From Squalus acanthias (taxonomy: Eukaryota), in contig CM059432.1 in the NCBI GenBank assembly GCA_030390025.1, positions 84,446,001-84,510,000 of the forward strand: a stretch of 64,000 nt of DNA, written 5' to 3'. The position numbers and the translations under genes were made by a program. Below are positions 7,301-60,624 of the stretch, piece after piece (position 1 is the first letter of the stretch; the number at the start of each line of letters is the position of its first letter). The notes below the pieces were generated by a model. It did not search any database. It saw only the letters and a list, made by a program, of their open reading frames with translations, and was not told the origin of the DNA.

Positions 7301-7469
7301 AGTCAATGGGCTAAAAATTCAGTTGGTTGCGCCTCCCGTTAGCGCCTTAAGAGGGCGCTAATGGGGCGCAAAGCCAGGCGCGCCGAAGTTTGCGCCGCTC
7401 GCGAACTTAACTAGACATTTTGCGGCGGCGCTAAACTTAATCGCCGCGATCTCCTGCGCACGCAGATTC

Positions 7470-7614
7470 TGACGTCATACGAGGGTGCAACGCCCTTGTG
7501 GCGCCCCAGAGCAGAAATTGAGTGGCGCCCCCATCCTTACCGCCTGGCGCATCCAACGACCGGAAGACTGGAACGCTATCAATCGCTGTGGGGCTGGGGG
7601 GGGCGCTATTTAAA
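7470..7614 (+). promoter_or_regulatory. Putative transposase promoter (CRE TGACGTCA 7470-7477, TATA-like TATTTAAA 7607-7614)
   Basis: Both motifs lie upstream of ATG 7807 and are retained in the three related MITEs. Confidence 0.5.
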
Positions 7615-7806
7615 GGGGGCCTCTTCCTGTCTTTCTCTGTGGTTGACATTTTTGCACCACTCGTTCTGAGAGAGAGAGCGATTCGGAGAGAGAGAAAGAG
7701 AGACTTCTGCATTGAGTCAACGCTGTGTGAGGTAGTTTTGGCTACTGATCATAACTTCGCTGGTACTTTGGTTTTTGGCCTTCATAACTTTGCTTGCTAA
7801 GAGACT

Positions 7807-8837
7807 ATGGGGGCTGCACTGATTGGGGGCGTCGTCCTGCGCCAGCTGAATCGGAGGACACAGAGACGCAGAGAGAGAGTGGCAATGATGGCCAGACGGA
7901 GGAGGGCCAACAGGCGTCTGTACAGGAGAGCTTACCCTCCCAGGGTATATCGTGACCAGCTCTCCTACATTCATATGTCTGATGAGCAGTGTTTGCGAAG
8001 GCTGCGCTTCAGCAAGGAGGTGGTCACTGAGCTCTGCCACCTGCTGCAGCCAGATCTGCAGCCTCAACTGAGGTCCAGGACGTCTCTGTCGGTGGCAGTG
8101 AAGATCACAGTGGCTCTGAACTTTTATGCTACTGGCTCATTTCAATCTGCTGCTGGGGACCTCGCCAATATCTCCCAGTTCGCGGTGCATTGCTGCATCC
8201 GTCACGTCACAAATGCCCTCTTTAAAAGGAGACGAGAGTACATCTCTTTCCCCATGACCCCAGACAAGCAGCATGAACGCGCTCTGGGCTTTGCGAGGAT
8301 AGCGGGCTTCCCCATGGTGCAGGGCGCCATTGACTGCACGCATGTGGCTTTGCGTGCTCCGCATGAGAATGCCGAGGATTTCCGGAACAGAAAGGGGTTC
8401 CATTCCTTGAATGTTCAGTTGGTCTGTGACCACAGACAGCTGATACTCGCTGTCAATGCCCACTATCCTGGCAGCTGCCACGATGCTTTCATCCTGCGCC
8501 AGACTACTGTGGCAGAACTTTTCGAGGCACCGCATCAGCCAGCTGGTTGGCTTCTCGGGGACAAGGGGTATCCACTGAGCACCTGGCTGATGACACCGCT
8601 CCATACGCCCAACACCCCTGCTGAGCTGCGGTACAACGAGAGCCATCAAGCTACCAGGAACATCGTTGAGCACACAATCGGCGTGCTGAAGCAACGGTTC
8701 CGCTGTCTGGACCATTCTGGAGGAGCCCTGCAGTACTCGCCTGAGCGAGTTTCCAACTTTGTAGTTGTGTGCTGCATGCTGCATAACATGGCAATCGTCA
8801 GGACCCAGCCAATGCCACCAGGCCTTGGAGCACCACC

Positions 8838-8868
<31 letters not shown>

Positions 8869-8967
8869 GAGGAGGATGATCATCAGCAGCACCAAGGCGT
8901 GAGGGCGGCCCACAATGGTGAAACTGCAAGGGCCGTCCGTCAACGGCTGATAGCAAGCCGCTTCTAG
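7807..8967 (+). CDS. Harbinger (HARBI1-like, DDE_Tnp_4) transposase, 386 aa
   Basis: [53 protein letters not shown]; acidic C-terminal tract; no stops. Confidence 0.95.
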
Positions 8968-9278
8968 GCCCCTGCTGTGGAAATGGCTTCTGCCATTGAG
9001 AACAACATCAATGAACCCAACACGCAAACCCTAAGCCGGCCAAGGCACCAATGATTCCAAACACCAAACATGTATATTTTGAATACAGAAACTTATTTAT
9101 TTTACAAACTCTGTGTGTGTCATTTCTTCATGACAAACTAATAGAAATAAACACAAAAAAACAGTCATTAACATAACTGGTTCTCACAACCTGGAGATAA
9201 TGTCCAAAACACTAAACAAAAGTTTGACCACGAACCTCGGCCTTTAATAAAAAAATGACCAACATTTTGTCACACCTC

Positions 9279-11098
9279 CTACTTTTTGCCCTTCGAGGGT
9301 GATCTCCTTCCCTTGCGCACTTCCCCCCTTCTTACCCTACTGCTCCTCCGTAATGGGACCTCAGTGGCTGCAGCAAGGCTGGTGGAAGGCTGCTGATTGT
9401 CAGACCCTGACACTGCAGAAGCCCTTGAAGGACGGCCTCGACCAGTTCTGGGCCTGGAGGGCCCGGCTGCAGACTGCACCAACTCTGCATGGGCGGCAGC
9501 AGTCTGTCCTACAGGCGGTGGCAAGTGCAGTGGAGAAGTGACAGTGTTGGCAGCAGGAATGCTGTCATCTTGAGAGAGGACAGCAACTCCCTGCTCGACC
9601 GACACACTGGCACTCCCACGGGGCAGCACTTCAGCATCCGGAACAATCTGCTGGAGCACAGATTGCTGGCCTGCTGCGGCGCGGTGAGAGCCCCGGGGAA
9701 ATGTGAACGAACCATCGAGGATGGCAGCAGTCAGTGCTCGCGTGGCCTCAATCTGAGTCTGCATGAGAACAGTCAGAGATGGGATCACGGCAGCCAGTGA
9801 CTGAATTGCAGCACTAAGCTTTAGTGTGGCATCCGCCTGTGCTACAGCGAAGTGCTCCACACTCCTTGCCAGTGATTCAATGCATTCGGGCACCCTTCCC
9901 ACTGCACCCATGAGCTCAGTGTGCATGTCCACTGCCTGGGTGTTCATTTTAGCGATCAGCCGCTCCTCCTCTGCGTCCAGTGCAGTAGGACTCGCTGGCA
10001 TACTCTCACTCCGGGGAGAAGGCCCCCGTTCTTCCCTACCCCCATGGCGTTGCTGCAGCCCGCTGGGTCCTGGAGCTTCACCCTCATCAGACCCTTCCCC
10101 CCTGCTCCCCTCCAGGGAAGGCGTGTTCTCAGTGTGGGCATGGGCTTCCTCGGGAGAGGGTGGCACTGATGCTCCGCCTTCATCTTCCTCCTCGGCTGCA
10201 GCTTCACTTCCACTGGCAGCTTGAAGGCCCGTCTCCTCAGCTGGTGAATCACCATCTGAAAGCAGGGAGGTACAAGAGTGGCTTTAGCGTGAGGACAGGG
10301 TGGCAGTAAGGGAGGAATAAGTGCAGCGATTTAGTAAGTTGGATTGAAAGTGTCAAAGGCTGGTGTTGTGAGGGACAAGTGGAAGGACAGAGGACAAAAA
10401 GGTGATGACCTTACCATTGCTGTCCAGAACGGGGTCGGCGTCTCCAGTGGCGACGGGACCGATCACCCGGCTTGCCACAATCCTGTGGATGCGCTCCTCA
10501 AGATCGCTGAGGGGTTGCAGCTGAGGCCGCCCTCCACCCGTCCATTGCTGCTGTCTCCTATTATGAGACAGCTTGGCCTGCAAGAAAAAGGACGGCGTCT
10601 GAGTAAATATACAGCCATGGTCTTGCCTGATGTGCCTCCCATAGGTGAATAGCCCTTACTGTATGCAGCCGTGGTCTTGCCTGATGTGCCTCCCATAGGT
10701 GAATAGCCCTTACTGTATGCAAAGTGTGGAATGTGTGTGTGTGTTTCATGAAAGGGCCATAGGTGTTGGATGAGTGTTGTTAATTGGGGTTTTAAGACCC
10801 TCTGGCCATAGAGTGAGGTTGAGATGGAGGGATGGAGAGGTATTGAAAAAAAGCCACTCACCCTGACGACCCGAGTGAGGTCGTTGAACTTTTTTCGGCA
10901 TTGTACATGGGTCCTGGGCACCAAGCTCCTGCAGGAGACGCTCTGAGCCACCTCCCTCCACACTCTTCTGTACTCGCGCGGCAAAGGCCTCCTGCCACTC
11001 TCAGGGAAGAGTATAGATTTTCTGCGCTCCACCGCGCCAACCAGAGCATCCAAGGCCCGCTCGCTGAAGCGCTGAGCTCGTTCTCTCACCCTCTCCAT
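9279..11098 (-). CDS. Harbinger Myb/SANT-like DNA-binding protein, 3 exons (11098-10862, 10577-10415, 10255-9279), 458 aa
   Basis: Exon 1 MERVRERAQRFSERAL...W.EVA..V...RT..QCRKKFNDL; exon 2 contains TGGG. GT-AG junctions (agg|gtgagt, ttgcag|gcc, aatg|gtaagg, tttcag|atg) join in phases 0 and 1 into one open frame. Confidence 0.85.
10612..10721. repeat. 54-bp tandem duplication in intron 1 of the Myb gene
   Basis: cagcc(a/g)tggtcttgcctgatgtgcctcccataggtgaatagcccttactgtatg twice, starting at 10612 and 10666. Confidence 0.9.
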
Positions 11099-11459
11099 AG
11101 TCCTTGGCTTGAAAATGTAATCACAGGTCTCTCCAGGTCGAGATTCAAGGCTCCAATGAACAGGGTGTGGCTGGAGAGCAAGATCGACCCTCCCCTTTAA
11201 GAACTGGCCGGCGCCAGTGTGTCTGTGTTCCATCGCTAACTGACATCACCTGCGCTGCGCCCGCGCTCTGAGTTAGCGCCTCACTCCTCGGCCTTTGCGC
11301 CTTAAGACAGGTGTGCAGCGCCTGATTTAGCGCTCCAATCACCTCCCGGGACATTAAAAGTCAAGTTTGCAGTCAGTGGCGATAATTAGCGCCAGGCGCT
11401 AATCTTTGCGCCCGGCCGATAATTGCGCCCCAAATGGGGTGATACTGAATTTTTCCCCC

Positions 11460-14400
11460 ATTGAGTCATAGAGTCATACAGCACAGAAGGAGGCCATTCA
11501 GCCCATCGAGTCCGTGCTGGCTCTCTGTAGAGCAATCCAGTCAGTCTCATTCCCCTGCTCTATCCCCATAGCCCTGCAAGTTTATTTCCCTCAAGTGCCT
11601 ATCCAGTCTCCCCTTGAAAACATTGAGGCCCAGAAATTGCAGTGTGAGGGTTCGTGCGAGGGTAAGCCCTTCCCGCGATGTCTCACTGCGCGTTGGCTTT
11701 TTCAGTCCCAGCTCGCTGGAACTTCATGTTCCAGCCATCAGCTGCGAGTGCATCGTGATCCCACAGTGCGGAGTTAGTTCGAGTGCACTGTGGGATCACG
11801 TGACTGAGTTACAGCCAATGGCAGCACACCAAGCTCTCATTCATAGAATTCACAGCGGCCATTGAACTGCTGTGAAAACTAGGAATACAACAAGCCCCCA
11901 AAAGAAGAGCTAAACCTCCATTAAATTAAAAAAAAACCCCATCACATAATTAAAATAAGTGTAATTAAATAAATTAACCTTTTTAAACAAAAAATAAATT
12001 TTTGAAAAAATTTTAAATCTTTTAAAATGTTATAAAAATAAACTTACCTGTCTTTAAAGTCGCTACTAAAGATTTACCTGTAAAAAAAAATTCTAAATAC
12101 TACTTAATTATGTACTTACCTGGTTAAAAGTGTCTCCTGCGCTTCCTTTTTTCTTTTCCAGATTCTTCAATACTTACCTGCGTGCGCAAGCGATGAAGTG
12201 CACTGCGTGCGCGCAGCCTGTAGCGCGCACGCGGTGCACTGAGGACCCGCCCCCTTTTCGAAAGATCAATTGCCGGTTTTCAGTGCATGCGCAGTGCATG
12301 CTGAAAACCGGCAATTGAAGTCTGGCTGCGTGAGTGTACACTGTGCGTACTCTCGCGCAGCCGGATCAATTTCTGGGCCTGAGTGTCTCCGCTTCCACCA
12401 CTTCCATCAGCAACGAATTTCAGGTCCTCACCACTCGCTGCGTAAAAATGTTTTTCCTCACATCCCCCCTGTATCTCTTGCTCAAAACCTTAAATCTGTG
12501 TCCCCTAGTCCTTGTACCATCAACTAGTAGGAACAGCCTTTCCCCGTCTAGCTTATCCAAACCTGTCATAATCTTGTACACATCTATCAAATCACCCCTC
12601 AACCTCCTTTGCTCTAATGAAAACAAATCCAGCTTCTCCAACCTGTCCTTGTAGCTAAGATCCCCCATCCCCAGAACAATTCTGGTAAATCTCTTCTGCA
12701 CCCTCTCAAGGGCCTTCACATCCTTCCTAAACTGTGGTGACCAGAACTGGACGCAATACTCCAGTTGTGGCCTAACCAACGCTTTATAAAGGTTCAGCAT
12801 AACTTCTCTACTTTTGTACTCAATACCTCTATTTATGAAGCCTAAGATCCATATGCTTTGCTAACCACTCTCTCAATATGTCCTGCCACCTTCAGGGATC
12901 TATGCACATTAACTCCCAGGTCCCTCTGTCTCTGCACACTCTTTAAAACTGTGCCATTAAGTGTATATTGCCTCTCCCTGTTCCTTCTGCCAAAATGCAT
13001 CACCTCACACTCCTCTGTATTAAATTCCATCCGCCACTTGTCTGCCGGTTCTGCTAGCCTTTCTATGTCCTGTTGCAGTCGATCGGTATCATCATCACTG
13101 TTTGCCACAGCCCCAAGTTTGGTGTCATCGACAAATTTAGAAATTCTACTCTGTATTCCAATATCCAGGTCATTTATATATATCAAAAAAACCAGTGGCC
13201 CCAGCACTGTCTACCATCCTCCAGTCTGAAAAACAGCCATTTACCACAACTCACTGTTTTCTGACCTTAAGCCAATTCCTCATCCAAGCTGCCACTGACC
13301 CACCTATTCCATGAGCCTCAATTTTGTTAACCAGCCTTCTATGTGGTACTTTATCAAACGCCTTCCGATAATCCATGTAGACAACATTCATTGCATTCCC
13401 TTCATCAATCCTCTCTGTTACTTCATCAAAAAATTCAATTAGATTAGTCAAACACGATCTGCCTTTTACAAATCCATGTTGGCTCTCCTTAATTAGCTTA
13501 AACCTTTCCAAGTGCCCGTTAATTTTTTCCTTGATTATTGTTTCTAAAACTTTACCCACGATTGATGTTAAACTGACCGACCTGTAGTTATTACGATTCT
13601 CCTTACACCCTTTCTTGAACAATGGTGTCACATTTGCCACTTTCCAATCCTCAGGCACCTCCCCCGCATCTAGGGAAGATTGGAAAATTATGGCAAGCCC
13701 TTCCGCTATCTCCTCCCCCAATTCCCTTAGCAACCTAGGATGCAAGCCATCTGGACCAGGCGACTTATCCACTCTAAGCATACCCAGCCTTTCTAGTACA
13801 TCCTGTTTATCAATTTTCACCCCTTCCGTTGCTTCTACCTTTTCCACTTCTACCAATATTTTGTTAGTATCCACCTCCTTAGTAAAACCGATACAAAGTA
13901 CTCATTGAGTATTCTAGCCTTACCCTGTGCCTCTAAGCATATATCACCTTCTTTGCCTCTAATAGGCCCCACCCCTCCTCTTACTACCCGCTTACTGTTT
14001 ACATGCCGGTGGAAGATTTTTGGGTTCCCTTTTATGTTAACCGCTATTCTACTCTCATATTCTCTCTTTGCCAATCTTATTTTCACATTCAGTTCCCCTC
14101 TCAACTTATTGTATTTGGTCTGGTTCTCCCTTGAAGAATTCACCTGGCATGCATTATACACCCTCTTTTTTTGTTTCATCATCTTCTCTATCTCCCTCGT
14201 CATCCAAGGAGCCCTTGCTTTGGTTCCCTTACCCTTCCCTCTTGTTGGAATGTACCTAGCCTGTATTTGGAACATCTCCTCCTTGAAGATCATCCATTGT
14301 TTCATTACAGTTTTTCCTATCAGTCTTTGGTTCCATTTTACCCTGGCTAGATCCTGTCACATCCCATTGAAGTTAGCCATATTCCAGTTTAGAAGTTCCA

Positions 14401-16889: not shown

Positions 16890-17029
16890 TCCCGAGTCCG
16901 AGTCCGAGTCCGCAAACGGCGATTTAGTCAGTAGGGGTACTTTTCAAAAGTGCCACTACTCGGCCTCCTGGCGCTGTCGGAAGTCCAAAACATTGCAGTA
17001 GCAGGTGTAGATTCTCCCGCGCTGCCTGG

Positions 17030-17325
17030 AGTCTCTTCTGATCGGCCATTTTGCTGGGTGTCTCCCACAATGCTGGTACTGTAGTCTCTTCTGATACACC
17101 ATTTTGCTGTGTGTCTCCCACGCTGCTGGTACTGTAGTCTCTTCTGATACACCATTTTGCTGTGTGTCTCCCACGCTGCTGGTACTGTAGTCTCTTCTGA
17201 TACACCATTTTGCTGTGTGTCTCCCACGCTGCTGGTACTGTAGTCTCTTCTGATACACCATTTTACTGTGTGTCTGCCACGCTGCTGGTAGTCTCTTCCT
17301 AGCCACCATTGTTCTGTGTGTCTTT
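17030..17325. repeat. 53-bp minisatellite (~5.5 copies) upstream of the Tigger ATG
   Basis: CCATTTT recurs at 17046, 17099, 17152, 17205 and 17258. Confidence 0.92.
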
Positions 17326-17362
17326 CCATCTTCATCGGCAATTATCTCCTCCATCTTGCATT

Positions 17363-25939: not shown

Positions 25940-27710
25940 ATCCTTAGAATCCAACCACTTCGATGTGGTGCATCTGCGTAGTTTGAACAGAGGTAGAGGC
26001 AGGCTGCTCAGATCCCTGCCCTGACTGCTGAGATGCTTTTGGCCTACGACCTCTGAGTTTTGGAGCCGCTGAGGACCCCGCCAAAGACTGCTCTGCATGC
26101 ATCTGTGCGGGGCAGACTTGGCCATCGGGAGATGAGGCAGCATGTCAGTTACTGGCTGAGGGTGAGAAGTGGGAGTGCTTTGCATGGAGTTGGCACTTCC
26201 ATGTCCCCTTTCACCACCATCCCTCTCCTGGGCCAGCGCCACATCACTCCTATCACTCTGCTGCAGACCAGCTTGGTGAAGATCATTTTAAGGCCACTGA
26301 TTTAGTATCTGTCATCCTGTTTAAGGCAGCAGACATCTCCTGCACGGCCATGGTCATGGCCTGCATGGACTCATTTGAGAGCCGTGCTTGAAGCTCCATG
26401 GAGGTGACCACTCTCTCCATGGCAGATATTTTTGCAATTCCCTGCATCACCAATCCACTAACGATGGAGTTGGACTCCTCCATCCTCTCCGCTATTGTGG
26501 AGAGTGTGTGTGGCATGACTGTCAGTACCTGGCTAAGTTGCTGATGCACCTCTAGCATTCTCCTTCTCAAGGATAGTTCTGGGGTTCAGAATCTGTGTCC
26601 AGCTGAGCAGAGCTTGGAGAAGATTGCACCCCCTGTTCGAACTCTCCACAGCTATCCCTGCCACCAGTGTCTGCTTGTGCTCACTTGTGAGGTGCAAATC
26701 ACCAGGTGAAAACCCAACTAATTCTCTTAGTGGACTCACCAAAGTGTGAGTATTTGTGCTGGAGCATGGCTGTACGTCCTGTGATTGTGCACCCTCAGTA
26801 GGAATGAGGTCCTCTGAGGAATCGTTCTCATGGATGTCCTGCGACATATGCTGTACGCATGAAGGCCCTGCAAGACAAAAGAAAGGGATATGATTTAGTC
26901 GTGGCAAAGTCACAATCTTGACAATCACCCTACTCCATCTTCTCATAGTTCAATTATTAATGAAATAAAATCAGCACAGTGCGTCAGAGATACTTGTAAT
27001 TCTATCACCATTCTATGTGAGTTCCCTGTCTCTCCATCTCTGACTGAAAGGAATGCAGATGTGTCTCTCATCTCCAGGACCTCCTCTTCTGCAGCTGTTA
27101 GCTGGACTAATTGTGGTGGGCCACCTCCAGTCCTCGCCCTCTCTCTTGCTTTTTGCGTTCTCTTCTCCTACAAGGGGCTAAAAAGCAGACTTGTGAGTGA
27201 ATGAAGATCATGTATACTCCCGATGGATGCAATGCATTCGGTGAGGATTACAATGAGATAGATGCATCCCATTGCATAAGGATTGGGGTGAGTGGCAACT
27301 GTGGATGGATAAATGGGGAGATGATGACGTGCATAGAAATTGAAGTCTGGGTGCTGCTGAATGTTGAGTGGGTGTGAGAAGTGATGTGATGGAGAACGTT
27401 TAGCAAGACAGAGTGAAAGGGGGTGGGGGCTTAAACCACAGGATGTAGTTGAATCAGCAAATGTACTCAATTTTCCTGACCTGCTTAGGTCATTAAACCA
27501 CCACCGACATTGCATCCAAGACCTGGGCACAACCCTCCTGCTGCTCACCTCCTCAGTTACCTCCAACAATGCCTTTTTGGTGAGAGCCACACGTTTCTTC
27601 CTCCCATTGCTGGGGAAAAGTATGTCACTCCTGCTCCTGACTGCACCCAGCAGTAATTCCAGCAATGTGTCTTTGAATCTGGGTCTTGCCCTTGCACTAT
27701 GTGCACAATC
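25940..27710 (-). pseudogene. Harbinger Myb/SANT gene remnant B (3 exons), followed by a probable element end near 27957
   Basis: ARPRFKDTLLELLLGAV...WMQCRWWFNDLSRSGK; exon 2 ARERARTGGGPP; exon 3 similar to remnant A. Confidence 0.75.
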
Positions 27711-28394
27711 CATCGTGAACAGCTCCAATTTCCATTTGTGCATTGTCCCTTTAATAACAGCTGAGATCGCATCATGTGGTGCGCATCATGGCCCCTGCGC
27801 AGCTTGGAGATGCGAAACCCGGAAATCAAAATTAATTGATTCAATTGCGTTGCGATCGCAGATTCCGACCCGCTGAGTTAACTTCCAGGTTTCGCCCACA
27901 CAATTCCACCACCCCCCCCCACTCGGAAGCCACTTTCAGATTAATACCAGGGCCCCTGTTTCCCTCATTGCGTCATTATCAGCTTGCACTCTAAGCAAAT
28001 TAGTGGGCAAACATTTTTTGAGTTGAAGAGGGTAGGGACAAAATCTGGCCCAATGTTGCATCTGGGGGCATTGTGATAAAATATTGAATAGCTGCTCATA
28101 ACTGGTTCCATCCCCCAAATGCCAATGATTCCCCATTAACATATCTAGTTCAGAATGACAACCTTGTGGTCCAGCTTCCAACAGTACAGAGTAAATCAGT
28201 CTTAGGAGAGCATTTGCACTACATCAGTGAGAAATTTATTTTTACAGTTGTAGTGTACATGCAACCTAAATCTGAAGTCAGCTTGAGCCTAGACTTCTAC
28301 ATGGTAGAATTCGCTGACTTCGCTTTCAAACCAATGGAAAATGAGTTGCACCCAACAATGGTCTGGAGAGGTATTTAAACGAGGCTTTCCTAGA

Positions 28395-30120
28395 ACATAA
28401 TATAAGAACATAAGAAATAGGAGCAGGAGCAGGCCATTCGGCCCCTCGAGCCTGCTCCGCCATTTAATGAGATCATGGCTGATCCGATTTTGGCCTCAAC
28501 TCCACTTTCCTGCCTGCTCCCCATAACCCTTGACTCCCCTGTTGCTCAAAAATCTGTCTATCTCAGCCTTGAATATATTCAATGACTCAGCTTCCACAGC
28601 TCTCTGGGATAAAGAGTTCCAAAGATTCATGACCCTCTGAGAGAAGAAATCCCTCCTCATCTCCATCTTAAATGGGCGACCCCTTATGACCCCTCGTTCT
28701 AGATTCCCCCACGAGGGGAAACATCCTCTCAGCATCTACCCTGTCCAACCCCCTCAGAATTTTATATATTTCAATAACTCCAATGAGTATGGGCCCAACC
28801 TGCTCAACCTTTCCTCATAAGACAACCCTTCCATCCCAGGAATCAACCCAGTGAACCTTCTCTGAACTGCCTCCAATGCAAGTATATCCCTTCTTAAATA
28901 AGGGGACCAAAACTGTACGCAGTACTCTAGGTGTGATCTCACCAGCACCCTGTACAGGTGTAGCAAGACTTCCCTACTTTTATACTCTATCCCCCTTGAA
29001 ATGAAGGCCATTTGCCTTCCTAATTACTTGCTGCACTTGCATGTTAACTTTTTGTGTTTCATGTACGAGGACACCCAAATCCCTCTGTACCGCCGCATTC
29101 TGTAGTCTTTCTCCATTTAAATAATATTTTTCTTTTCTATTCTTCCTACCAAAGTGGATAACTTCACATTTTCCCACATTATACTCCATCTGCCAAATTC
29201 TTGCCCACTCACTTAACCTGTCTGTATCCCTTTGCAGACTCTTTGGGGGGAAAATTTGGTTGCTTTGCGCCTCCCGTTAGCGCCCTAAGAGGGCGCTAAC
29301 AGGGCGCAAAGCAAATAACACCCGGGCGCCGCCAACGCCACCTGCGAAATTCAGTGGGAGGTTAGCTGCGGCAGTAACCGTTAGCGCCCCGTGGTGCTGC
29401 GACATGTAGCGCTGCGATATTCCCTCGCAGCGCCCCAAGAGGGAGGCGGGGCGCTTCCAGTAGTGCCCCGCTTCCCTCTTGGGGTGCTACCACTCAATTT
29501 TGGCCACGGGGGTGCTAATTTTTCCGGGGCGCTACTTTTAGCGCCCCGGCAAAGTTAGCGCCCCAAAGGGGGCGCGACTCAATTTTTCCCCCTTTATGTC
29601 CTCCTTACAACTTGCTTTCCCACCTATCTTTGTATCATCAGTAAATTTGGCAACAGTACACTCGGTCCCTTCATCCAAGTCATTAATATAGATTGAAAAT
29701 AGTTGAGGCCCCAGCACTGATCCCTGTGACACCCCACTAGTTACAGATCCTGAAAATGACCCATTTATCCCAACTCTCTGTTTTCTGTTAGTTAGCCAAT
29801 CCTCTATCCATGCTAATATGTTACCCCTAACACCATGAGCTCTTATCTTATGCAGTAACCTTTTATGTAGCACCTTGTCGAATGCCTTTTGGAAATCCAA
29901 GTACACTACATCAACTGGTTCCCCTTTATCCATCCAGCTCGTTACCTCCTCAAAGAACTCTAATAAATTTGTCAAACACGATTTCCCTTTCATAAAACCA
30001 TGCTGACTCATTTTCCAAATGCCCTGCTACTACTTCCTTAATAACGGATTCGAGCATTTTGCCAATGACAGATGTTAGGCTAACTGGCCTATAGTTTCCT
30101 GCTTTCTGTCTCCCTCCTTT
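28395..30120 (-). mobile_element. CR1 LINE 3' portion, interrupted by a MITE
   Basis: [27 protein letters not shown]; aagaacataagaaatagg tail. Confidence 0.92.
29245..29592 (+). mobile_element. 348-bp Harbinger MITE related to the left end of 7308-11459
   Basis: TIR ggggggaaaatt / aatttttccccc; TSD TTT; shares gcgcctcccgttagcgcc.taagagggcgctaa. Confidence 0.88.
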
Positions 30121-30490
30121 TTCCTGGGTCCACTTATTTACATATCCATTGCAGTAGTGATTGGCATAAAAGCCATGTAAAATGGGAGTAATGTGCTGGA
30201 AAGCATGGAAATTAGAGTGCAGCCTTGAAAAAGCCAGTCCCAGCTGAAGTTCGCAGCACAAGACTGTGGGAGTGAGCTTGACCGGATAGGGTAAATATCC
30301 ACATGGTGCGTTGCGCCACTTTCACACCAATGGAAAAAGTTTTGCGTCTGCCGGTGGTCTGAAAAGGTATTTAAGCAAGAGTTTCCTGGGTCAGCTTATT
30401 TGTGTATCCATTGCAGTAGTGACTGACATAAATCCCGTGTAAAACAGGTGTATTCTGAATAGAAATTGGAATGCAGCCTTTAAAAAGACA

Positions 30491-32223
30491 GGCGGGGATT
30501 TTACTAACCTGGGCGGGTCTGTGGCGGGCGACGTCGGTGGCGGGTCCCGACCCTGCTGCTGGCTCCATCCCGCTCTGTGAAATGAATTTCCCTTGATCGG
30601 GCTTGTTCAGCTCGTCCAGCGCTTTTCCCGGCCAATTAGAGGAAGTGGATGACGCATCATCAGCCAGTTTCCTTAAAGGGACCACGGCCAAATTTATTTT
30701 GACAGTTGTGCTGTCAGTGTTCTACAGCATTGAGGTACAGCAAACACTGGCAATCACTGCACAGAGGTGCACAGCTGCACCCAGGCTCTCCCATGATTCC
30801 CTCCATATGCTTATGGAGGGAGTCACAGCATGCAGGGAGGTCCTCGTCCCTTCCCATGGGCAGAAGACACCTCACCAGGAATCAACACAGCCTGGTTATA
30901 CATTGCAGAGGAGGGCACAAGCAGGGATGTGGTCAGGAGGACCTGGGTGCAGTACTGCAAACGTTTCAATGATCTCAGTAGATCACAAAACATTAGTACA
31001 AAGCCACACTCAACCTCATCCTGCTGTGACTCTCATCACGTCCCCATCAATCTGCCTTTCCTACCCTACCCTACCCCTGCACATCCTTACTCACACCAAC
31101 TTATCTTGGACCTCCACCCATCTCTCTCTATCTATATTATCACATCCCCATCTCATTAGCCACCCCTCACACTCACCCTTATCCTAGTGCAATCATACCA
31201 ACTAACAACACACAAGGGTGTTTTATCCAATGTTCATGTAAAGTTTCTGTTAATGTGGTGTCAAACATTGAAACCTTTATTTTCAACACTGTGTTCTTGG
31301 ACAGATTTGTGTGCACCTTTGGAAGTGGCTTAGTGAGTTGCAGTGAATGGTGAGACATAACAGTACCCCCCGCAATGGTGATGAGTGTGAAAGGAATGGC
31401 TTGGGCATTGTAGGGATGCTTTTTGGTGTTGGTGTGGGGTGGTGCCAACCTAGCGCATCATGTGGCAACCAGGGTGTACAGCGTCAAGTGAAGTAAACCT
31501 GGCCATGGTGAGGCCATCCCTGGCCTCCCGGGCAGCAATGTGGTCGAGTGCTGATGCCCTCTGTCCTGTGCAGCCTCAGTTGATTGCGGAGAAGGTTGGT
31601 GGTGTTGTTGTTGGTGCTGCTGGTGTTGGGGTTGATCGTGGTGGAATTCTGAGGACCAAGGTGAGAGAGTATAAAGGGCACCGATGCTGATGGAATAGAT
31701 GGCTGGTGAAGTAGATATGACAGAAGCGATCTGTCAATGGTGAGAGAGGTAATGAGGTCAGACTGGATGGAGACTTGTGTAAAGACTTGCAGCATCCTGA
31801 ATCTGTAGTGGAAATGCAGTGAGGAAGAGCTTGCGGCCGAGGGAAGATATCTTTGTAAGGTGGGAGCTTTTGCTTTACATTTGAAGCTGTCAACTCATCA
31901 GCTGATTCAATGTCCACTGACCTCCCACCTCAGCTTGACAGACATGGTCCACGACCAGCGTGGACCCTGTGGGCAAGCTGTCAAATGCAAAAGTTAAGCT
32001 GAAAATCATTCTTAAGTGGCTCTAAACAAGCCACTAATTACCTGAATTGGGTCCCCCGCCGTTGCGTGTCGGGTCTGCTCAGCGCTGACAGACCCGACAT
32101 CGGAGAAAAGCGCGTGGCGGCGGGTTGACAGTAGGGTCCTGACCCGCTGGGGAACAAAAACACTTTCCCACCCGACCTACCACCGATCGCGCCAGCTGAC
32201 CCCCCCCCCGCAAAATCCCAGCC
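30491..32223 (-). mobile_element. 1.7-kb non-autonomous Harbinger (Myb exon-1 remnant on +, transposase end remnant on -)
   Basis: TIR ggcggggatttt / aaaatcccagcc; TSD ACA; RTWVQYCKRFNDLSRS; homologous to 58836-60624. Confidence 0.85.
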
Positions 32224-35355: not shown

Positions 35356-36246
35356 GGGGGAAAAATTCAGTTGGTTGCACCTCCCGTTAGCGCCTTAAGA
35401 GGGCGCTAATGGGGCGCAAAGCATCTAGCGCCCAGGCGCGGCGATGTTTGCGCCGCTCGCGAAATTAACTAGACATTTTGCGGCGGCGCTAAACACTACC
35501 GCCACGATCTCCTGCGCCGGCAGATCGTGACGTCAGTCGAGTGCGCAACGCCCTGGTATCGTCCCGGAGCAGATATTGAGTGGCGCCCCCTGCCTTACCG
35601 CCTGACGCTAGCAACGACAGGTTGAGGGGAGCGTTTTGCAGTCATGAAGGGACTGGGGGAGCGCTATTTAAAGACGACTGCTTCCTGCCTTTTATTGTTG
35701 GTGCCATTTTTGAACCATGCATTCTGAGAGAGAGAGAGAGACTTCTGGAGAGATTCAACGCTGTGTGAAGGAGTTTTGGGTACTGAGCAGCACTTTGCAG
35801 GTTCATTTTGATTTGCCCTTCCTTGTATCGATTTAGAAGAGACTGTGGGGGCTGCACTCTAAGCTCTTTCCCTGGTACTCTCCATTGTTCTTTCCAGCAG
35901 ATTTGATGTGCAGGTCTCTCCAGGCCAGGATTCAAGGCTGCAATGAGCAGGATGTGGATGGAAAGCAAGTTCAACCATCCCCTTTAAGAACTGGCCGGTT
36001 CCATTGTGTGTGTGTTCCATTGCTGACTGACATCACATGAGCTTCGCCAGCGCTCTGAGGTAGCGCCTCGCTCCTCGGCCTTTGCGCCTTAAGACAGGTG
36101 TGAAGCGCCTGATTTAGCGCTCCAATCACCTCCAGGGGTGATAAAAGTCAAGTTTGCAGTCGGTGGCGATAATTAGTGCCAGGCGCTAATCTTTGCGCCC
36201 AGCCGATAATTGCACCCCAAATGGGGCGATACTGAATTTCTCCCCC
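35356..36246 (+). mobile_element. 891-bp MITE derivative of the 7308-11459 Harbinger family
   Basis: Same TIRs and subterminal sequence; TSD TAA; nested in an older Myb-like remnant (RFSDAAVEMLIE on the minus strand at ~36290-36320). Confidence 0.93.
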
Positions 36247-36677: not shown

Positions 36678-38752
36678 TTAGAAACATAGAAACATAGAAG
36701 ATAGGAGCAGGAGTAGGCCATTTGGCCCCTCGAGCCTGCTCCGCCATTCAATGAGATAATGGATGATCATCCAAATTTAGTACCCTGTCCCTGCCTTTTC
36801 CCCATATCCCTTGATCCCTTTAGCCTTAAGAAATATATCTAACTCCTTCTTGAATATATTTAATGAATTGGCCTCCACTGCCTTCTGTGGTAGAGAATTC
36901 CACAGGTTCACCACTCTCTGGGTGAAGAAATTCCTCCTCATCTCTGTCCTAAATGGCTTAACCCTTATCTTTAGACTGTGACCCCTGGTTCTGGACTCCC
37001 CGACCATCGGGAACATCCTTCCTGCATTTAGTCTGTCCAGTCCTGTTAGAATTTTATAAGTTTCAATGAGATCTCCTCTCATTCTTCTAAACTCCAGCGA
37101 GTATAAGCCCAATCGACCCAATCTCTCTTCATACGTCATTCCTGCCATCCCAGGTATCAGCCTTGTGAATCTTCGCTGCACTCCCTCCATGGCAAGAACA
37201 TCCTTCCTCAGATAAGGCGACCAAAACTGCACACAATACTCAAGATGTGGTCTCACCAAGGCCCTGTACAACTGCAGCAAGACATCCTTGCTCCTGTATT
37301 CGAACCCTCTCGCTACGAAGGCCAACATACCATTTGCCTTCTTAACCGCCTGCTGCACCTGCATGCTTACCTTCAGCGACTGGTGCACAAGGACACCCAG
37401 GTCTCGTTGCACTTCCCCTGCTCCCAATCTATTGCCATTCAGATAATAATCTGCCTTCCCGTTTTTGACACCAAAGTGGATAACCTCGCATTTATCCACA
37501 TTATAATGCATCTGCCGTGATTCTGCCCAATCACCCAACCTGTCCAAATCATACTGGAGTTTTTCGGCATCCTCCTCACAGCACACACACCCACCCAGCT
37601 TTGTGTCATCTGCAAACTTGGAGATATTACATCTAGTTCCCTCGTCTAGATCATTAATATATATTGTGAATAGCTGGGGTCCTAGGACCGATCCCTGCGG
37701 TAACCCACTAGTCACTGCCTGCCACTTGGAAAAAGACCCGTTTATTCCAACTCTTTGCCTTCTGTCTGCCAACCAGTTCTCTATCCAAGTCAATACCTTG
37801 CCCCCAATCCCATGTGCCTTAACTTTACACGCTAATCTCTTATGCGGGACCTTATCGAAAGCCTTCTGAAAGTCCAAATACACCACATCCACTGGTTCTC
37901 CCTTATCTATTTTACCAGTTACATCTTCAAAAAAATTCCAGTAGATTAGTCAAGCATGATTTACCTTTTGTAAATCCATGTTGACTTTGTCCGATCCTGT
38001 CACTGTTTTCCAAGTGCTCTGCTATTACATCTTTTATAATGGACTCCAGCATTTTCCCCACTACCGATGACTATAATTCCCCGTTTTCTCTCTACCACCT
38101 TTTTTGAATAGTGGGGTAACATTAGCTACCCTCCAATCCATGGGTACTGTTCCAGAGTCTATCGAATGTTGGTAGATGACCAGCAATGCATCTATTATTT
38201 CTAGGGCCACTTTCTTAAGTACCCTAGGATGTAGATTATCAGGCCCTGGGGATTTATCGGCCTTCAATCCCGTCAATTTCGCTAACACCATTTCCCTACA
38301 AATACTGATTTCTTTCAGTTCCTCCCTCTCATTAGACCCTATGTTCCCCGACATCTCTGGGAGGTTATTTATGTCCTCCTTTGTGAAGACAGAACCAAAG
38401 TATATATTTAATTGGTCTACCATTTCTTTGTTCCCCATTATAAATTCCCCTGATTCTGACTGCAAGGGACCTACGTTTGACTTCACCAATCTTTTTCTCT
38501 TCACATATCTATAAAAGCTTTTACAGTCAGTTTTTATGTTCCCTGCAAGTTTACTCTCATACTCTATTTCCCCCTCTTAATTAATCCCTTTGTCCTCCTT
38601 TGCTGAATCCTATACTGCTCCCAATCCTCAGGTTTACTGCTTTTTCTGGCCAATTTATATGTCCTCTCCTTGGATCTTATGCTATTCCTAATTTCCCTTG
38701 TTAGCCACGGTTGAGTCACCTTTCTTGTTTTATTTTTATGCCAAACTGGGAT
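36678..38752 (-). mobile_element. CR1 LINE 3' 2 kb, relatively young
   Basis: (agaaacat)n tail; ORF2 fragments 38061-38504 and 36777-37892. Confidence 0.93.
36777..37892 (-). pseudogene. CR1 ORF2 reverse transcriptase C-terminal fragment (371 aa open)
   Basis: [30 protein letters not shown]; frameshifted upstream. Confidence 0.9.
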
Positions 38753-39499
38753 GAATCAAAAGGTATATTGCAGCATCTGTAATCTCAAATGAGGGTAAAA
38801 ACCTTGATCCAGGTAACACACTGGTAAAAAATAAAACAAGTTGAATATAAAGTGGAAAAAACAGGACGAGATTAAAAGGGTGTCGCTAAAATAGTTCATG
38901 TTTAAAATGGATGTGAGATCTGTATGCAATCTGCCATCCATTTTGAACACTAAACTGGCAGATTTCAAAACTCTGAAGCAATCTGAAGTCACCTGATACC
39001 AACTGAATGACAATTTTAATCAGTTCAATATAAGCATTTTATAGAAATAGGATTTTGTTAAATTTTACATTTGTAGTTTATTTTCAGTTTAAGCCTTGCA
39101 AGAAGAAACAAATAACCAGTAGTAAATTTGATGAGCGGAAGGACAAGCCAGCGACAAGAGGGTGTCATTTTTTTTGTTACTTTTATGAAACATCAGGAAA
39201 ATGGATGTCAGATGAAATAAAATTGGCACACAGTCTGGCATTTCTTTTGAATAGTAAGTGAACATTTTTTGAACATTAAATCCAGAGTGCAGCAATAACA
39301 GAAACTTACATTCCAATATCAGAGCAATACCACTGCCATACAAAGACAAAAAATGCAAGGATCATTGAGGGTTACAAATAAGTATCTGTAATTTCAGTGA
39401 TGGCAACTTGCAGTGAGAATAGAATACTCTGTTGGAGTTTGTAAACCCTTTGAGGATGAGGCCTCCATTAAATTCCAAACACAAAATCAACTAAATTGG

Positions 39500-45073: not shown

Positions 45074-46258
45074 GGGGTAAAAATTCAGTTGGTTGCGCCT
45101 CCCGTTAGCGCCTTAAGAGGGCGCTAATGGGGCGCAAAGCCGCTAATGCCCGGGCGCAGCGATGTTTGCGCCGCTCGGGAACTTAACTTGACATTGTGCG
45201 GCGGTGCTTAAACTTACCGCTGCGACCACCTGCGCGCGCAGATTGTGACGTCATTCCATGGTGCAACGCCCTTGTGGCGCCCCGGAGCGGAAATTGAGTG
45301 GCGCCCCCTGCCTTACCGCCTGGCGCATCCAACGACCAGAAGACTGGAACGCTATCAATCGCTGTGGGGCTGGGGGGGGGCGCTATTTAAAGGGGGCCTC
45401 TTCCTGTCTTTTATTGTTGGTGGCATTTTTGAACTACGCATTCTGAGAGAGAGAGGGAGAGACTTCTGGACAGATTCAACGTTGTGTGAAGGAGTTTTGG
45501 GTACTGAGCAGCACTTTGCAGGTTCATTTTGATTTGCCATTCCTTGTATCGATTTAGCAGAGACTGTGGGAGCTGCACTCTGAGCTCTTTGCCTGGTACG
45601 CTCCATTGTTCTTTCCAGCAGATTTGATGTGCAAGTCTCTCCAGGCCGAGATTCAAGGCTGCAATGAACAGGATGTGGATGGAAAGCAAGATTAACCATC
45701 CCCTTTAAGAACTGGCCCGTGCCATTGTGTGTGTGTTCCATTGCTGACTGACATTACATGAGCTTCGCCAGCGCTCTGAGTTAGCGCCTCACTCCTTGGC
45801 CTTTGCGCCTTAAGACAGGTGTGCAGCGCCTGCTTTAGCGCTCCACTCACCTCCCGGGGCGGTAAAAGTGAAGTTTCCAGTCAGTGGCGATAATTAGCGC
45901 CAGGCGCTAATATTTGCGTCCAGACGATATTAGCGCCCCAAATGGGGCGCGACCTAATTTCTACCCAAATTTCTATCCAAAAATGTGTGGGTTAGGTTGA
46001 TTTGGCTATGATAAATTGACCCTTAGTGTTAGGGGGGATTAAATATGTGGGGTTATGGGGATAGGATGGGATATGTTAGGGGGAATTAAAAATGTGGGGT
46101 TACGGGGGTAGGGTGGGATATGTGTACTGTGGGGATTAAAGCAGGGACAGGGTACTGGATTTGGATGATCAGCCATGATCGTATTGAATGGCGGAGCAGG
46201 CTCGACGGGCCGAATGGCCTACTCCTGCTCCTAGATTCTATGTTTCTATGTTTACCCC
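45074..46258 (+). mobile_element. ~0.9-kb MITE derivative of the 7308-11459 family with a SINE in its right TIR
   Basis: ggggtaaaaattcag left end; terminal tttacccc displaced to 46251-46258; TSD TAT. Confidence 0.88.
45977..46250 (+). mobile_element. 5'-truncated HE1/V-SINE-like element
   Basis: ccaaaaatgtgtgggttaggttgatttggctatgataaattgacccttagtgt resembles the V-domain 3' part; CR1-type tail ggccgaatggcctactcctgctcct. Confidence 0.7.
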
Positions 46259-46618
46259 TATGATTCTATGATAAGGAGACCAAAACTGTGCACAGTACTC
46301 CAGGTGTGGTCTCACCAAAGCCCTGTACAATAGTAGCAAGACTTTCTTACTCTTGTACTCCAACCCCTGTTCAATAAAGGCCAACATGCCTTCCTAATTG
46401 CTTGCTGTACCTGAATGCTGAATTTCTGTGTTTCTTGTACGAGGACACATAAATCTCCCTGAACACCAACATTTAATAGTCTCCCACCATTTAAAAAATA
46501 TACTGTTTTTCTATTCTTCCTACCAAAGTGAATAACCTCATATTTCCCCACATTATACCCCATCTGCCACCTATTGCCCACTCACTTAACCTGTCTATAT
46601 CCCTTTGCAAGACTCTTT

Positions 46619-47511
46619 AGGGGAGAAATTCAGTATCGCCCCATTTGGGGCGCAATTATCGGCCGGGCGCAAAGATTAGCGCCTGCCGCTAATTATCGCC
46701 ACCGACTGCAAACTTGACTTTTATTGCCCCTGGAGGTGATTGCAGCACTATATCAGGCGCTTCACACCTGTCTTAAGGCGCAAAGGCCGAGGAGCGAGGC
46801 GCTACCTCAGAGCGCTGGCGAAGCTCATGTAATGTCAGTCAACAATGGAACACACACACAATGGCACGGGCCAGTTCTTAAAGGGGATGGTTAATCTTGC
46901 TTTCCGTCCACATCCTGCTCATTACAGCCTTGAATCTCGGCCTGGAGAGACTTGCACATCAAATGTGCTGGAAAGAACAATGGAGAGTACCAGGCAAAGA
47001 GCTCAGAGTGCAGCCCCCACAGTCTCTGCTAAATCGATACAAGGAATGGCAAATCAAAATGAACCTGCAAAGTGCTGCTCAGTACCCAAAACTCCTTCAC
47101 ACAACGTTGAATCTCTCCAGAAGTCTCTCCCTCTCTCTCTCAGAATGCGTAGTTCAAAAATGGCACCAACAATAAAAGGCAGGAAGCGGTCACCTTTAAA
47201 TAGCGCTCCCCCTTTCCCTTCATGACTGCAGAACGCTCCCCTCAACCTGTCGTTGCTAGCGTCAGGCGGTAAGGCAGGGGGCGCCACTCAATATCCGCTC
47301 CGGGGCGATACCAGGGCATTGCGCACTCGAGTGACGTCATGATCTGCTGGCGCAGGAGATCGTGGCGGTAGTGTTTAGCGCCGCCGCAAAATGTCTAGTT
47401 AATTTCGCGAGCGGCGCAAACTTCGCCGCGCCTGGGCGCTAGATGCTTTGCGCCCCATTAGCGCCCTCTTAAGGCGCTAACGGGAGGCGCAACCAACTGA
47501 ATTTTTCCCCC
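46619..47511 (-). mobile_element. 893-bp MITE derivative of the 7308-11459 family
   Basis: Reverse-complement homologue of 35356-36246; TSD TTT. Confidence 0.93.
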
Positions 47512-48383
47512 TTTGTATCTCCTCACAGCTTACTTTCCCACCTAACTTTGTATCATCAGCAAACTTGAATACATTACACTCGGTCCCTTCATCTAAGTCA
47601 TTAATATAGATGGTAAATAGCTGAGGCCCAAACACTGATCCTGGAGGCACCCCACTAGTTACAGCCTGCCAACCTGAAATTGACCCATTTTTCCTTACTC
47701 TCTGTTTTCTGTCCATTAACCAATCCTCTATCCATACTAATATATTACCCCCAACCCCATGAGCTCTTATCTTGTGTAACAAACTTTTATGTGGCATCTT
47801 ATCGAATGCCTTTTGAAAATCCTTGTCAAACACGATTTCCCTTTCATAAAATCATGTTGACTCTGCCTAGTCTTATTATGATTTTCTAAGTGCCCTGTTA
47901 CCACTTCCTTAATAATAGATTCCAGCATTTTCCCGACGACTGATGTCAGCTTAACTGGTCTGTAGTTCCCTGTTTTTTCTCTCGCTCCTTTCTTGAATAG
48001 TGGTGTTACATTTGCTACCTTCCAATCCACTGGGACCGTTCTAGAATCTAGGGAATTTTGGAAGATCACAACCAATACATCCACTATCTCTGCAGCCACC
48101 TCTTTTAGAACCCTCGGATGTAGGCCATCAGGTCCAGGGGATTTGTCTTTTTCTCTACTGATGTTAACTACTTTAAGTTCCTCACTCTCATTAGCTATTG
48201 TGTCTCCACTATTTTTGGTATGCTTTTTGTGTCTTCTGCTATGAAGACAAATACAAAATATTTGTTTAAAGTCTTTGCCATTTCCTTATTCCCCATTATA
48301 ATTTCTCCTGTCTCATCCTCTAGGGAACCAACATTTGCTTTTGCTATTCTCTTCCATTTTACGTACTTGTAGAAGCTCTTACG

Positions 48384-49627: not shown

Positions 49628-50393
49628 GGGCCAAAAATTCGGCACTTGCCGGGTGAGTACGCGTTGTGTACTCACCCGTAAGGCCTCCTGAAGTGCCGGT
49701 TTCCTGCATGCACTGCGCATGCGCGGGAAACCGGAACTTCCGGTCTCGTGAAGGGAGGGGTTGAGAGGTGAACCATGTGCGTGGGAGAGGCTGCGCGCAT
49801 GCAGCGAACTTAGGTTTTTTTTCAGGTTTCTCCGGGAAGGTAAGTATGGAAGAAGCTGCACATTTAAAAAGGAGGTGCAAGACCCGTTTTTAACAAGGTA
49901 AGTGGTTAATTAATTACAATTTAAATTTTTTTTCAACAGGTTTACCTTTTTTAGATACTTTAAAGAAAAGGTAAGTTTATTTTTAGCACTGTTAAAAAGT
50001 ATTTTAACTTTTTGAAAAATTTAAATTTTTGTTTAAAGTAGTTAATTTATTTAACTTATAGTTATTTTAAAAATGTGATGTTTTTAAAAAAAATTATTTG
50101 AAGTTTAGGTGTTGTTTTGGGGCCGATTTCAATTCATAGATTTGACAGGTCTTCCTGTCAAATCTATGAATGAAAGATGGTCTGCTGCCATTGGCTCTCC
50201 ATAGCCCACCTGATCCCAAGGGACGCATCGCACTAACTACGCCCCTGGGATACACAAGCACTGCGCGCCGGCAGCTGCAGGAGGCCCAGGAGCTGAAGTC
50301 CCCGTGGGCCCAGAGGTCAACGGCAGGCGCAGTAGGTAGGTGCGCGCGGGATCCTTTCACCCGCGGGAAGCCAGGGAGCCTAATTTCTGGGCC
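49628..50393 (+). mobile_element. Harbinger-type MITE, multi-hairpin family, copy 3
   Basis: TIR gggccaaaaatt / aatttctgggcc; flanks AAT / ATT; same motif order as copies 1 and 2. Confidence 0.85.
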
Positions 50394-57943: not shown

Positions 57944-58027
57944 AAAGTCTCACATGTCATTGAAACATTATTTACTGGAAATACTCAGCAGGTCAGGCAG
58001 CATCTGTGGAGAGAGAAACAGAGTTGT

Positions 58028-58835: not shown

Positions 58836-60624
58836 GGCCGGAATTTTGCCAGCGCTCAGAGGGCGGGTTTGGAGGCAGGTGAGCTGCCAAAATAGCAAAG
58901 ATTGACAGCGACTAGGAAACCCGCTGTCAACCCACCTCCACGCGAGTCTCCCAGGTGTTGGGTCTGTCAGTGGAGAGCTGACCCGACACCAAGCAGCGGG
59001 GGAGACAATTGAGCTTGTTAAATGCTTTGTTAAGAGCCAATTTAATGGTATTTTGAGGCATCCTTCCAATTTTACGTTCTCCCCCACGGGTTACCTGCTG
59101 CTCGGGGAACACGCCAGGTCACCCTGGCGTGAGTTGTGTCTGCTCTGATGTATCTGATAAGCTGACAGCTGCAGAAATGGTGTAAAGGATGCCATGTTGC
59201 AGATGTTCAGTTTTAGAGCGCAGAAACTTTTGGTTACTTCATTTGTAATACATACAGAGATTTCTTTAGCTTGCAAGTGTTTAGAGGCAACTATATGTCC
59301 AGTGCCACCTCATTGGAACAACCTCTCTCACCATTGACAGATCGCTTCTGTCATCTTACCTGCAGCTGCCATCTATTGCAGCAACATTGGTGCCCTTGAA
59401 AAATCAGACCTTGGTCCTCTGAATCCTTCCATGATGAGCCCCAACACCAACATCACCAGGCACATCAACATCACCAACCTTCTCCGCCATCTCCTGATGC
59501 TGCAGAGGACACAGGGCATCAGCCCCTGACAGCACTGCTGCCTGGGAGGCCAGCGATGGCATCACGATGGCCAGATTTACTTCACTTGACGCTGTTAACC
59601 CTGGCTGCCACATGATGCGCCAGTTTGACACAATTCCACACCAGCACCGTGAAGCATCCCTTTAATGTCCAAGCCATTCCATGCAGACACATCACTATAG
59701 TGGGGGGTGGGGCGCAGGGGAGGGAGTTATATCTCAACATTCACTGGAACTCAGTAAGACACTTCTCAAGGTGCGCACAGATCTGTCCATGAAGGGGCAG
59801 TGTTGGATAAATAGATTTCACTGTATGGCAACACATTACCAGAAACTTCACATGGACATTGGCTAAACCTTTCAAGTGTCTACCCTTGTGTGTTGTTAGT
59901 TGGTATGCTTGCAGTAGGATGAGGGTGAGTGTGAGGGGTGGCTAGTGAGATGGGGAAGTGATAAAGTAGATAGAGAGGGTTGGGTGGAGGTGCAAGGTAA
60001 GTTGGTGTGAGTAAGGATGTGCAGGAGAAGGGTATGGAAGGCAGAGTGATGGGGATGTGTTGAGTGGCACAGCAGGGTGAGTTTGAGTGTGGCTTTGCAG
60101 TAACGTTTTGTGATCCACTGAGATCATTGAAAGGTTGGCGCCACTGCAGCCAGTGACCCCTGATGACATCCCTGCTTTTGCCCTCCTGTGTAATGTGCAA
60201 CCAGGCTGCGTTGGTGTCCTGGGGAGGTCTCTTCCACCCTTGGAAGGGAAGAGAACCTCCCTGCGTGCTGTGACTCGCTCCATAAGCATATGGAGGGAGT
60301 CATTGGAGAGCCAGGGTGCAAGCGTCCACCTTTGTGCAGTGCTTGTCAGTGTTTGCAGCACCTCAATGCTGTCAAACACTGACAGCACAACTGTCAAACT
60401 CAATGTGGCCTTGGTCCCTTTAAGGAAACCGGCTGATGACGCGTCATCAAATGACGTCATCAGACCCGCTTCCTGTTAATTGGCTGGGAAACCCGCAGGG
60501 TGGGCTTAACAAGGCCAATCAAGGGAAAATCCCTTTGACAGAGCGGCTGCAGCCAGGATCATGACTGGAATCCAGAAATCAGCTCTCCCGCCATTATCCC
60601 GGCACCGCTGAGAAAATCGCGGCC
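58836..60624 (+). mobile_element. 1.8-kb non-autonomous Harbinger
   Basis: TIR ggccggaatttt / aaaatcgcggcc; TSD GTT; inverted homologue of 30491-32223. Confidence 0.87.

Follow-up and report, generated by a model that had tools for sequence, protein, structure and literature searches.

Independent Harbinger MITE insertions at the homologous base of two CR1-like copies in shark DNA, and a palindromic target motif as their probable cause

All characterised members of the Harbinger superfamily have an extended target preference, which measures 9 bp for plant members and 15 bp for those of vertebrates (PMC2836001, accessible text). In zebrafish, Harbinger3_DR and Harbinger3N_DR form a two-gene system with non-autonomous partners, a 3-bp duplication of the target site (TSD) and a long palindromic target, AAACACCWGGTCTTT (PMC3016246, accessible text; Sinzelle et al. 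2008 is cited via this paper and PMC2836001), and the original prediction had named such a preference for Harbinger3_DR. In plants, MITEs of the PIF, Ping/Pong and mPing type are moved by a transposase together with a Myb protein and have an A/T-rich 3-bp TSD (PMC2836001 and PMC4561436, in excerpt). The account available from Han et al. 2015 (PMC4482050) gives the TSD as TWA for the narrowly defined PIF/Harbinger group, ANT for Pangu, CWG for NuwaI and TNA within C-TNA-G for NuwaII. Repeated insertion at one position of a multicopy sequence is known from Dada and Pokey, which belong to another transposase superfamily, and Pokey prefers rDNA and inserts elsewhere too (PMC3706591, accessible portion). 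Independent nested insertions of MITEs into other repeats have been reported from plants, and in rice MITE insertions into class I elements were surprisingly rare (PMC5172404, accessible portion). For cartilaginous fish, the available part of PMC9179366 reports no Harbingers in the elephant shark and recommends other cartilaginous fish for examination, and that of PMC8437027 holds nothing on targets. Among the mainly open-access papers covered here we found none that treats a shark Harbinger target motif or a Harbinger hot spot in CR1.

In the window, by which we mean the whole stretch of 64,000 nucleotides of shark DNA that was analysed, two MITEs occupy the homologous base of two LINE copies. 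MITE A (29245..29592, plus strand, 348 bp) has Harbinger-type ends and its own internal hairpin, and lies between a TTT at 29242..29244, preceded by GACTC, and a TTT at 29593..29595, followed by ATGTC. MITE B (46619..47511, minus strand, 893 bp) is inverted relative to A and lies between a TTT at 46616..46618, again preceded by GACTC, and a TTT at 47512..47514, followed by GTATC. The coordinates, TSDs and opposite orientations in the original prediction were confirmed. Host A (28391..30123) is a decayed, 5′-truncated CR1-like LINE that is broken ~12 codons past the FxDD motif, and host B (46264..48382) is a truncated and decayed CR1-like LINE of the same subfamily; both have RVT_1 reading frames on the minus strand, and both are dead fragments with different truncation points. 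We provisionally take them to be CR1 from familiar CR1-type ORF2 motifs together with their earlier label. After in-silico removal of the MITEs and one TSD each, the hosts align over 647 columns at 82% identity, and the TSDs of A and B coincide at one position, ~12 codons downstream of the FxDD motif in the reverse transcriptase, with a one-base indel just left of B. The claim that the two elements sit at the same nucleotide of two separate CR1-like copies is therefore a confirmed observation.

The descent of both elements from one duplicated insertion, which the original prediction had named as its own refutation, was checked. Under such a history a segmental duplication, the retrotransposition of a MITE-bearing CR1 or a conversion copied one ancestral insertion, with later divergence or replacement, and the shared position and TSD in hosts of one subfamily speak for it. 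Against it, the two elements stand in opposite orientations and differ in length (348 versus 893 bp), their ends, compared on the minus strand, agree at 73% of ~160 bp and at 77% of 64 bp, and their interiors are essentially unrelated, with scattered matches of at most ~50 bp each and A gapped over ~540 alignment columns. Judged by its sequence, MITE A is no simple deletion derivative of MITE B. Furthermore, MITE B has an identity of 95% with the copy at 35356 and of 89% with that at 45074, versus only 82% between the hosts, and the outer flanks beyond the two differently truncated CR1 pieces gave no BLAST match to each other at E<=1e-3 (with the left flank of B covered over only ~290 bp). Because of the opposite orientation, the unlike interiors, the closeness of B to a copy elsewhere and the unmatched flanks, a single duplicated insertion is excluded and A and B are independent events, as had been predicted. 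The reading of one copied ancestral insertion is largely refuted, and we give it next to no credence.

Five copies with these ends are present in the window. The largest is a full-length two-gene Harbinger of 4152 bp (E1; 7308..11459, plus strand) that lies in a LINE tail repeat at a site with 0 mismatches to the target motif described below; it shares the ends of the MITEs and bears out their assignment to the Harbinger type. Its ends match those of B at 76% over ~510 bp and 89% over 335 bp, identities low enough to make E1 a relative of B's parent and not the parent itself. The transposase of E1 (7807..8967, plus strand) is an open frame of 386 aa with a DDE_Tnp_4 domain (PF13359, E=1.9e-41). 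At E<=1e-30 a protein search yielded 385 relatives, of which the 120 listed are nearly all shark or ray 'putative nuclease HARBI1' and the best 10 of the 385 are shark and ray proteins at 52-67% identity; a solved-structure search gave 7 matches, none below E=0.15. The second gene, with a Myb/SANT-like domain (10856..11095, minus strand; Myb_DNA-bind_5, PF13873, E=2.3e-9), appears to be split by introns and is probably spliced. Copy C (35356..36246, plus strand, 891 bp, TSD TAA) lies outside the LINE intervals at a site with 1 motif mismatch and no repeat match within the window. Copy D (45074..45966, plus strand, 893 bp) lies in the 3′ tail of another CR1 subfamily, with the triplet TAT on its left and an irregular right junction (45967-45980), where the second TAT and one terminal C are absent and the element abuts the LINE-tail repeat, a state consistent with a 4-bp deletion.

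The terminal inverted repeats (TIRs) of A, B, C and E1 are 16-bp pairs with 1-3 mismatches. Since the empty CR1 site in public contigs holds a single TTT, three bases were duplicated on insertion; a 2-bp TSD for A and B was rejected, given the three T at the empty site. No empty paralogous sites were found for C, E1, D or the other-family element F3. E1 (7305-7307 / 11460-11462) and F3 (49625-49627 / 50394-50396) both carry AAT at their left border and ATT at their right, so that the triplets are inverted counterparts and not a direct duplication, and this middle-base mismatch occurs twice among nine elements, in two that belong to different families. Repair between the paired ends may have produced it, or else the duplication comprised only 2 bp, AT. 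Collectively, the family has a DDE_Tnp_4/HARBI1-type transposase, a Myb/SANT second gene, TIRs, a 3-bp TSD and an extended palindromic target, traits by which A and B can be assigned to the PIF/Harbinger (PHIS) superfamily. The family's triplets (TTT, TTT, TAA, TAT and AAT/ATT) fit TWA in 1 of 5 cases, ANT in E1 and CWG in none, and the C and G that flank the NuwaII triplet resemble those of the shark family (PMC4482050, available account). Decayed Harbinger transposase or Myb remnants of other families lie at 21805-22651, 27465-27680, 33246-34387 and 56908-57063, and the superfamily is very heavily represented in the window.

From the family's insertions we derived a target motif, RASWC-WWW-GWSTY, a 13-bp palindrome around the 3-bp TSD. 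Among the ten half-sites, read outward from the TSD, position -1 is C in 8, -2 is A/T in 10, -3 is C/G in 8, -4 is A in 8 and -5 is G/A in 10/10. The five family sites have 0, 1, 1, 1 and 2 mismatches to it; only 15 of the 9541 A/T-triplet sites in the window have at most one, and four of the five family sites are among them. This motif comes from the same insertions that it describes, its width was picked post hoc, and the sample is small, with five family and four other-family insertions from one window. We trained a leave-out profile on E1, C and D only, with 5 bases per side, and scored hosts emptied of their MITEs. At widths 5 and 6 it ranked the A site first of 245 and the B site first of 250 A/T triplets, and profiles built from three random sites equalled these ranks in 18 of 3000 trials. 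With all six half-sites at widths 3, 8 and 10 the ranks were 3-17, and with C alone, the one non-LINE site, at width 5 they were 17-18 for A and 4 for B. E1 and D are not fully independent of each other, as both lie in similar LINE tail units. These results make a palindromic flank preference of the family well supported.

An independent line of evidence comes from TIR elements of other families. The search for such elements yielded 30 candidate TIR pairs, of which five rows belonged to the focal family (E1, C and, with three variant boundaries, A) and four (F1-F4, without assigned strand) were kept, each backed by a homologous second copy; the other 21 were discarded as chance or cross pairings and their flanks disregarded. 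F1 (11627..12379, TSD TGA) lies in the 3′ part of a LINE, F2 (30491..32223, TSD ACA) contains a Myb-like remnant, F3 (49628..50393) has the flanking triplets AAT / ATT, and F4 (58836..60624, TSD GTT), which also contains a Myb-like remnant, lies in a SINE-like repeat where its TSD is backed by three empty paralogous sites. F1 and F3 were assigned to their family by their ends only. F1-F4 represent two other TIR families, and their flanks agree with RASWC at 31 and with RASWY at 35 of 40 positions, the relaxation from C to Y having been chosen after the flanks were known, and none of 50000 random draws matched either form as well. A profile made from F1-F4 alone ranked the A site first of 245 and the B site 3-5 of 250. 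As the triplets TGA, ACA, AAT/ATT and GTT of F1-F4 indicate, the centre of the motif is looser than its flanks. Top or near-top ranks under both the leave-out and the other-family profiles substantiate the original claim that the family is sequence-selective.

These data bear directly on whether the shared position is a coincidence, with nothing preferred beyond an A/T-rich triplet and the case picked out by scanning many windows. In favour of coincidence, the events number only two, and scanning on a large scale does bring a look-elsewhere effect. Speaking against it, the 9541 A/T-triplet sites of the window include 1959 homologous pairs, and the probability that any two of five random A/T-triplet sites are homologous is ~4.3e-4, so that chance under an A/T-triplet preference alone is unlikely for a single window. 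Furthermore, the site scores at the top under profiles trained without A and B, and the same flanks recur in other families. Given the motif, the probability of the coincidence rises from ~4e-4 to 0.05-0.19. We regard pure coincidence as very improbable.

Several other structures were observed in the window. A perfect 939-bp inverted repeat with an 18-bp spacer stands at its start (1-1896), overlapped by an open RVT_1 frame of 758 aa (912-3188) that presumably is Penelope-like, to go by its motifs; the inverted repeat is either the terminal structure of a young element or an assembly fold-back. An almost uninterrupted DDE_1 (Tigger/pogo-like) transposase, spread over two consecutive frames (17303-19129), is preceded by a 53-bp tandem repeat (17013-17323). 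An imperfect 1.7-kb palindrome (57122-58793), with arms ~70-80% identical and a short SINE-like piece near its centre, is possibly a fold-back MITE or a pair of head-to-head Harbinger remnants.

The state of CR1 copies without an insertion is informative about how the site is used. Within the window, CR1 copies of other subfamilies (12381..14356 and 36682..38779, both on the minus strand) lack the motif at the homologous site and are empty. The original prediction had pointed to the copies at ~13080 and ~37560 as empty and different in sequence at that place; both statements stand, but these copies are not true empty controls. Together with the copy at ~44200 they are only 57-70% identical to the hosts, with 4-5 motif mismatches at the homologous place, and all three were rejected as controls since they belong to other subfamilies. 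The insertion site codes for residues that vary among CR1 subfamilies, and the three other subfamilies in the window differ there.

Genuine empty copies of the host subfamily come from public contigs only, for which 4 of 24 runs (two of one organism and two of relatives) were aligned to host B at 80% likeness. The consensus of loose ends at 46609 reads GACTC, TTT, GTGTC, with 0 motif mismatches, in runs X1 (at least 230 contigs), X19 (256) and X22 (at least 321), and in X5 (170 contigs) it is one base off the empty-site sequence; agreement within these consensuses is 0.54-0.64. Joints that skip the MITE (46609 -> 47519) were found in at least 37, 17, 40 and 38 contigs of the four runs. From this consensus and the skipping joints it follows that the ancestral site agrees with the motif without a mismatch, that the TSD is 3 bp and that many copies are empty. 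The empty form predominates among the joints and loose ends listed in all four runs, and none of the 15 joints (of 660) and 24 loose ends (of 7221) listed is a filled or strand-switching junction at the site. In run X1 the summed depth at 47517, just outside the end of B, is ~27,000 versus a bin mean of ~1.9 million, which, depth not being copy number, is a weak indication that only a small fraction of the junctions is filled. A pattern for the family terminus had 0 matches in JGI metagenomes and viral contigs, and one for the CR1 flank had 0 matches in metagenomes.

A low occupancy genome-wide, with both copies filled here, would also be expected if the motif preference were combined with a regional effect such as local hopping or a permissive region. 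The five family copies within 64 kb fit this, and the low depth in X1 is a weak hint in the same direction. However, A and B are not of the same family, and the divergence of 5-11% among B, C and D means that none of these is a direct local copy of another. Such a regional contribution seems to us quite improbable.

The original prediction went further and proposed that the family in effect parasitises CR1. Under dedicated targeting, the specificity would be tuned to CR1, or a longer CR1 context or a CR1-bound factor would be recognised, and CR1 would serve as a safe haven, the role that small RNA genes play for Dada. Both site-spanning copies of the host subfamily in the window are filled (2/2), and four of the five family copies lie in LINE DNA versus a LINE share of 21% (P=0.008, or 0.03 when A and B are taken as a single copy). 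Among good free sites the LINE share is raised as well (4 of 11 or 13 of 31, compared with 21%), which explains the excess in part and brings P to ~0.06-0.10 by hand calculation; the enrichment of the motif in LINE DNA covers most but not all of the LINE excess, and a mild excess remains.

Other evidence runs against dedicated targeting. The flank motif equals the flanks of zebrafish Harbinger3_DR and therefore needs no CR1 origin. Targets of the Dada type are conserved ones (PMC3706591, accessible portion), whereas the residues coded at this site vary between CR1 subfamilies, three of which have other residues and 4-5 mismatches here, and the conserved FxDD motif lies ~12 codons off. Insertions are not confined to one position, as those of Dada are, with two of five copies at this site, two in LINE tails and C outside LINE DNA, and F4 entered a SINE-like repeat that has three empty paralogues. 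Empty copies are abundant in the four public runs, hosts A and B are dead fragments, and no longer shared context is apparent, because the profile ranks worsen at widths 8-10 relative to 5-6. With the motif serving as a target in LINE tails, at 35356 and also, for a related family, in a SINE-like repeat, the claim that CR1 is parasitised outruns the data, and we consider dedicated CR1 targeting improbable. The same low standing applies to a related proposal, that the preference was kept or tuned so as to steer insertions into the most abundant LINE, at its reverse transcriptase site and its tail repeats, as a self-renewing safe haven with occupancy above what the motif predicts.

We therefore favour as the probable explanation a hot spot that is passive and made by the motif, in which a preference for a 13-bp palindrome meets a CR1 subfamily that carries a perfect copy of it. 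Harbingers are mobilised by a two-protein machinery, a DDE transposase and a Myb/SANT protein, which also moves non-autonomous elements. Given this biology and the ends that A and B share with E1, we infer that a transposase and Myb/SANT pair of the kind found in E1 mobilises both in trans as non-autonomous PIF/Harbinger elements. This machinery would read some five bases to either side of the 3-bp cut; the palindromic preference near the motif is itself shown by the statistics on nine insertions in the window. An abundant CR1 subfamily, whose perfect motif is seen in the empty-site consensus of public contigs, bears it by chance in a variable stretch of the reverse transcriptase, and retrotransposition would have multiplied this one good target, so that different MITE families could reach the homologous base independently and in either orientation. 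On this basis we infer a hot spot at the site that is passive and owed to the motif. Repeats in LINE tails are likely a second one, because the tail unit used by E1 and D scores 0 mismatches. Several TIR elements within one LINE region were observed at 11460-14356 (E1 and F1 in one copy) and at 47512-50560 (B and F3 in adjacent pieces).

Compared with zebrafish Harbinger3_DR, the closest described system, the shark family is likewise a two-gene system accompanied by non-autonomous elements, its TSD measures 3 bp and its target is a long palindrome. By inspection, the flanks AACAC and GTCTT of Harbinger3_DR fit RASWC and GWSTY at 10 of 10 positions, whereas the central triplet is CWG in zebrafish and made of A and T only in the shark family (TTT, TTT, TAA, TAT and AAT/ATT). 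The preference is resolved over ~13 bp here and over 15 in Harbinger3_DR, and the nearest transposases of the shark lineage, among the matches listed, are those of sharks and rays, unlike Harbinger3_DR. A LINE hot spot is not mentioned for Harbinger3_DR in the accessible text of PMC3016246 and PMC2836001. With the plant PIF, Ping/Pong and mPing elements the shark family has in common the probable movement of MITEs by a transposase and a Myb protein, a 3-bp TSD rich in A and T, and a preference that reaches beyond the TSD and in plants is 9 bp long (PMC2836001 and PMC4561436, in excerpt). Dada and Pokey resemble it in repeated insertion at one position of a multicopy sequence, and Pokey also in inserting elsewhere, but they differ in transposase superfamily and, for Dada, in a TSD of 6-7 bp versus 3 bp; their targets are conserved RNA genes (PMC3706591, accessible portion), whereas the shark family uses, without exclusivity, a generic short palindrome within a retrotransposon stretch that varies. 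The shark-lineage case is thus the expected outcome of a known Harbinger trait meeting a high-copy repeat.

Taken together, and on the probable reading, these results are of modest use: they provide a target motif for Harbingers of cartilaginous fish and suggest that the flank preference is common to them and zebrafish Harbinger3_DR, with the central triplet changed. This split between flanks and triplet bears on the question, raised in the accessible text of PMC2836001, of which Harbinger protein reads the target, and the open-frame transposase of E1 nearby renders the motif testable. If dedicated targeting were true after all, the family would be a DNA transposon specialised on a retrotransposon, in parallel to Dada. 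On the probable reading, the amplification of a retrotransposon can also create homoplasious hot spots, which calls for caution in the dating of repeats by nesting and in the use of insertions as phylogenetic markers.
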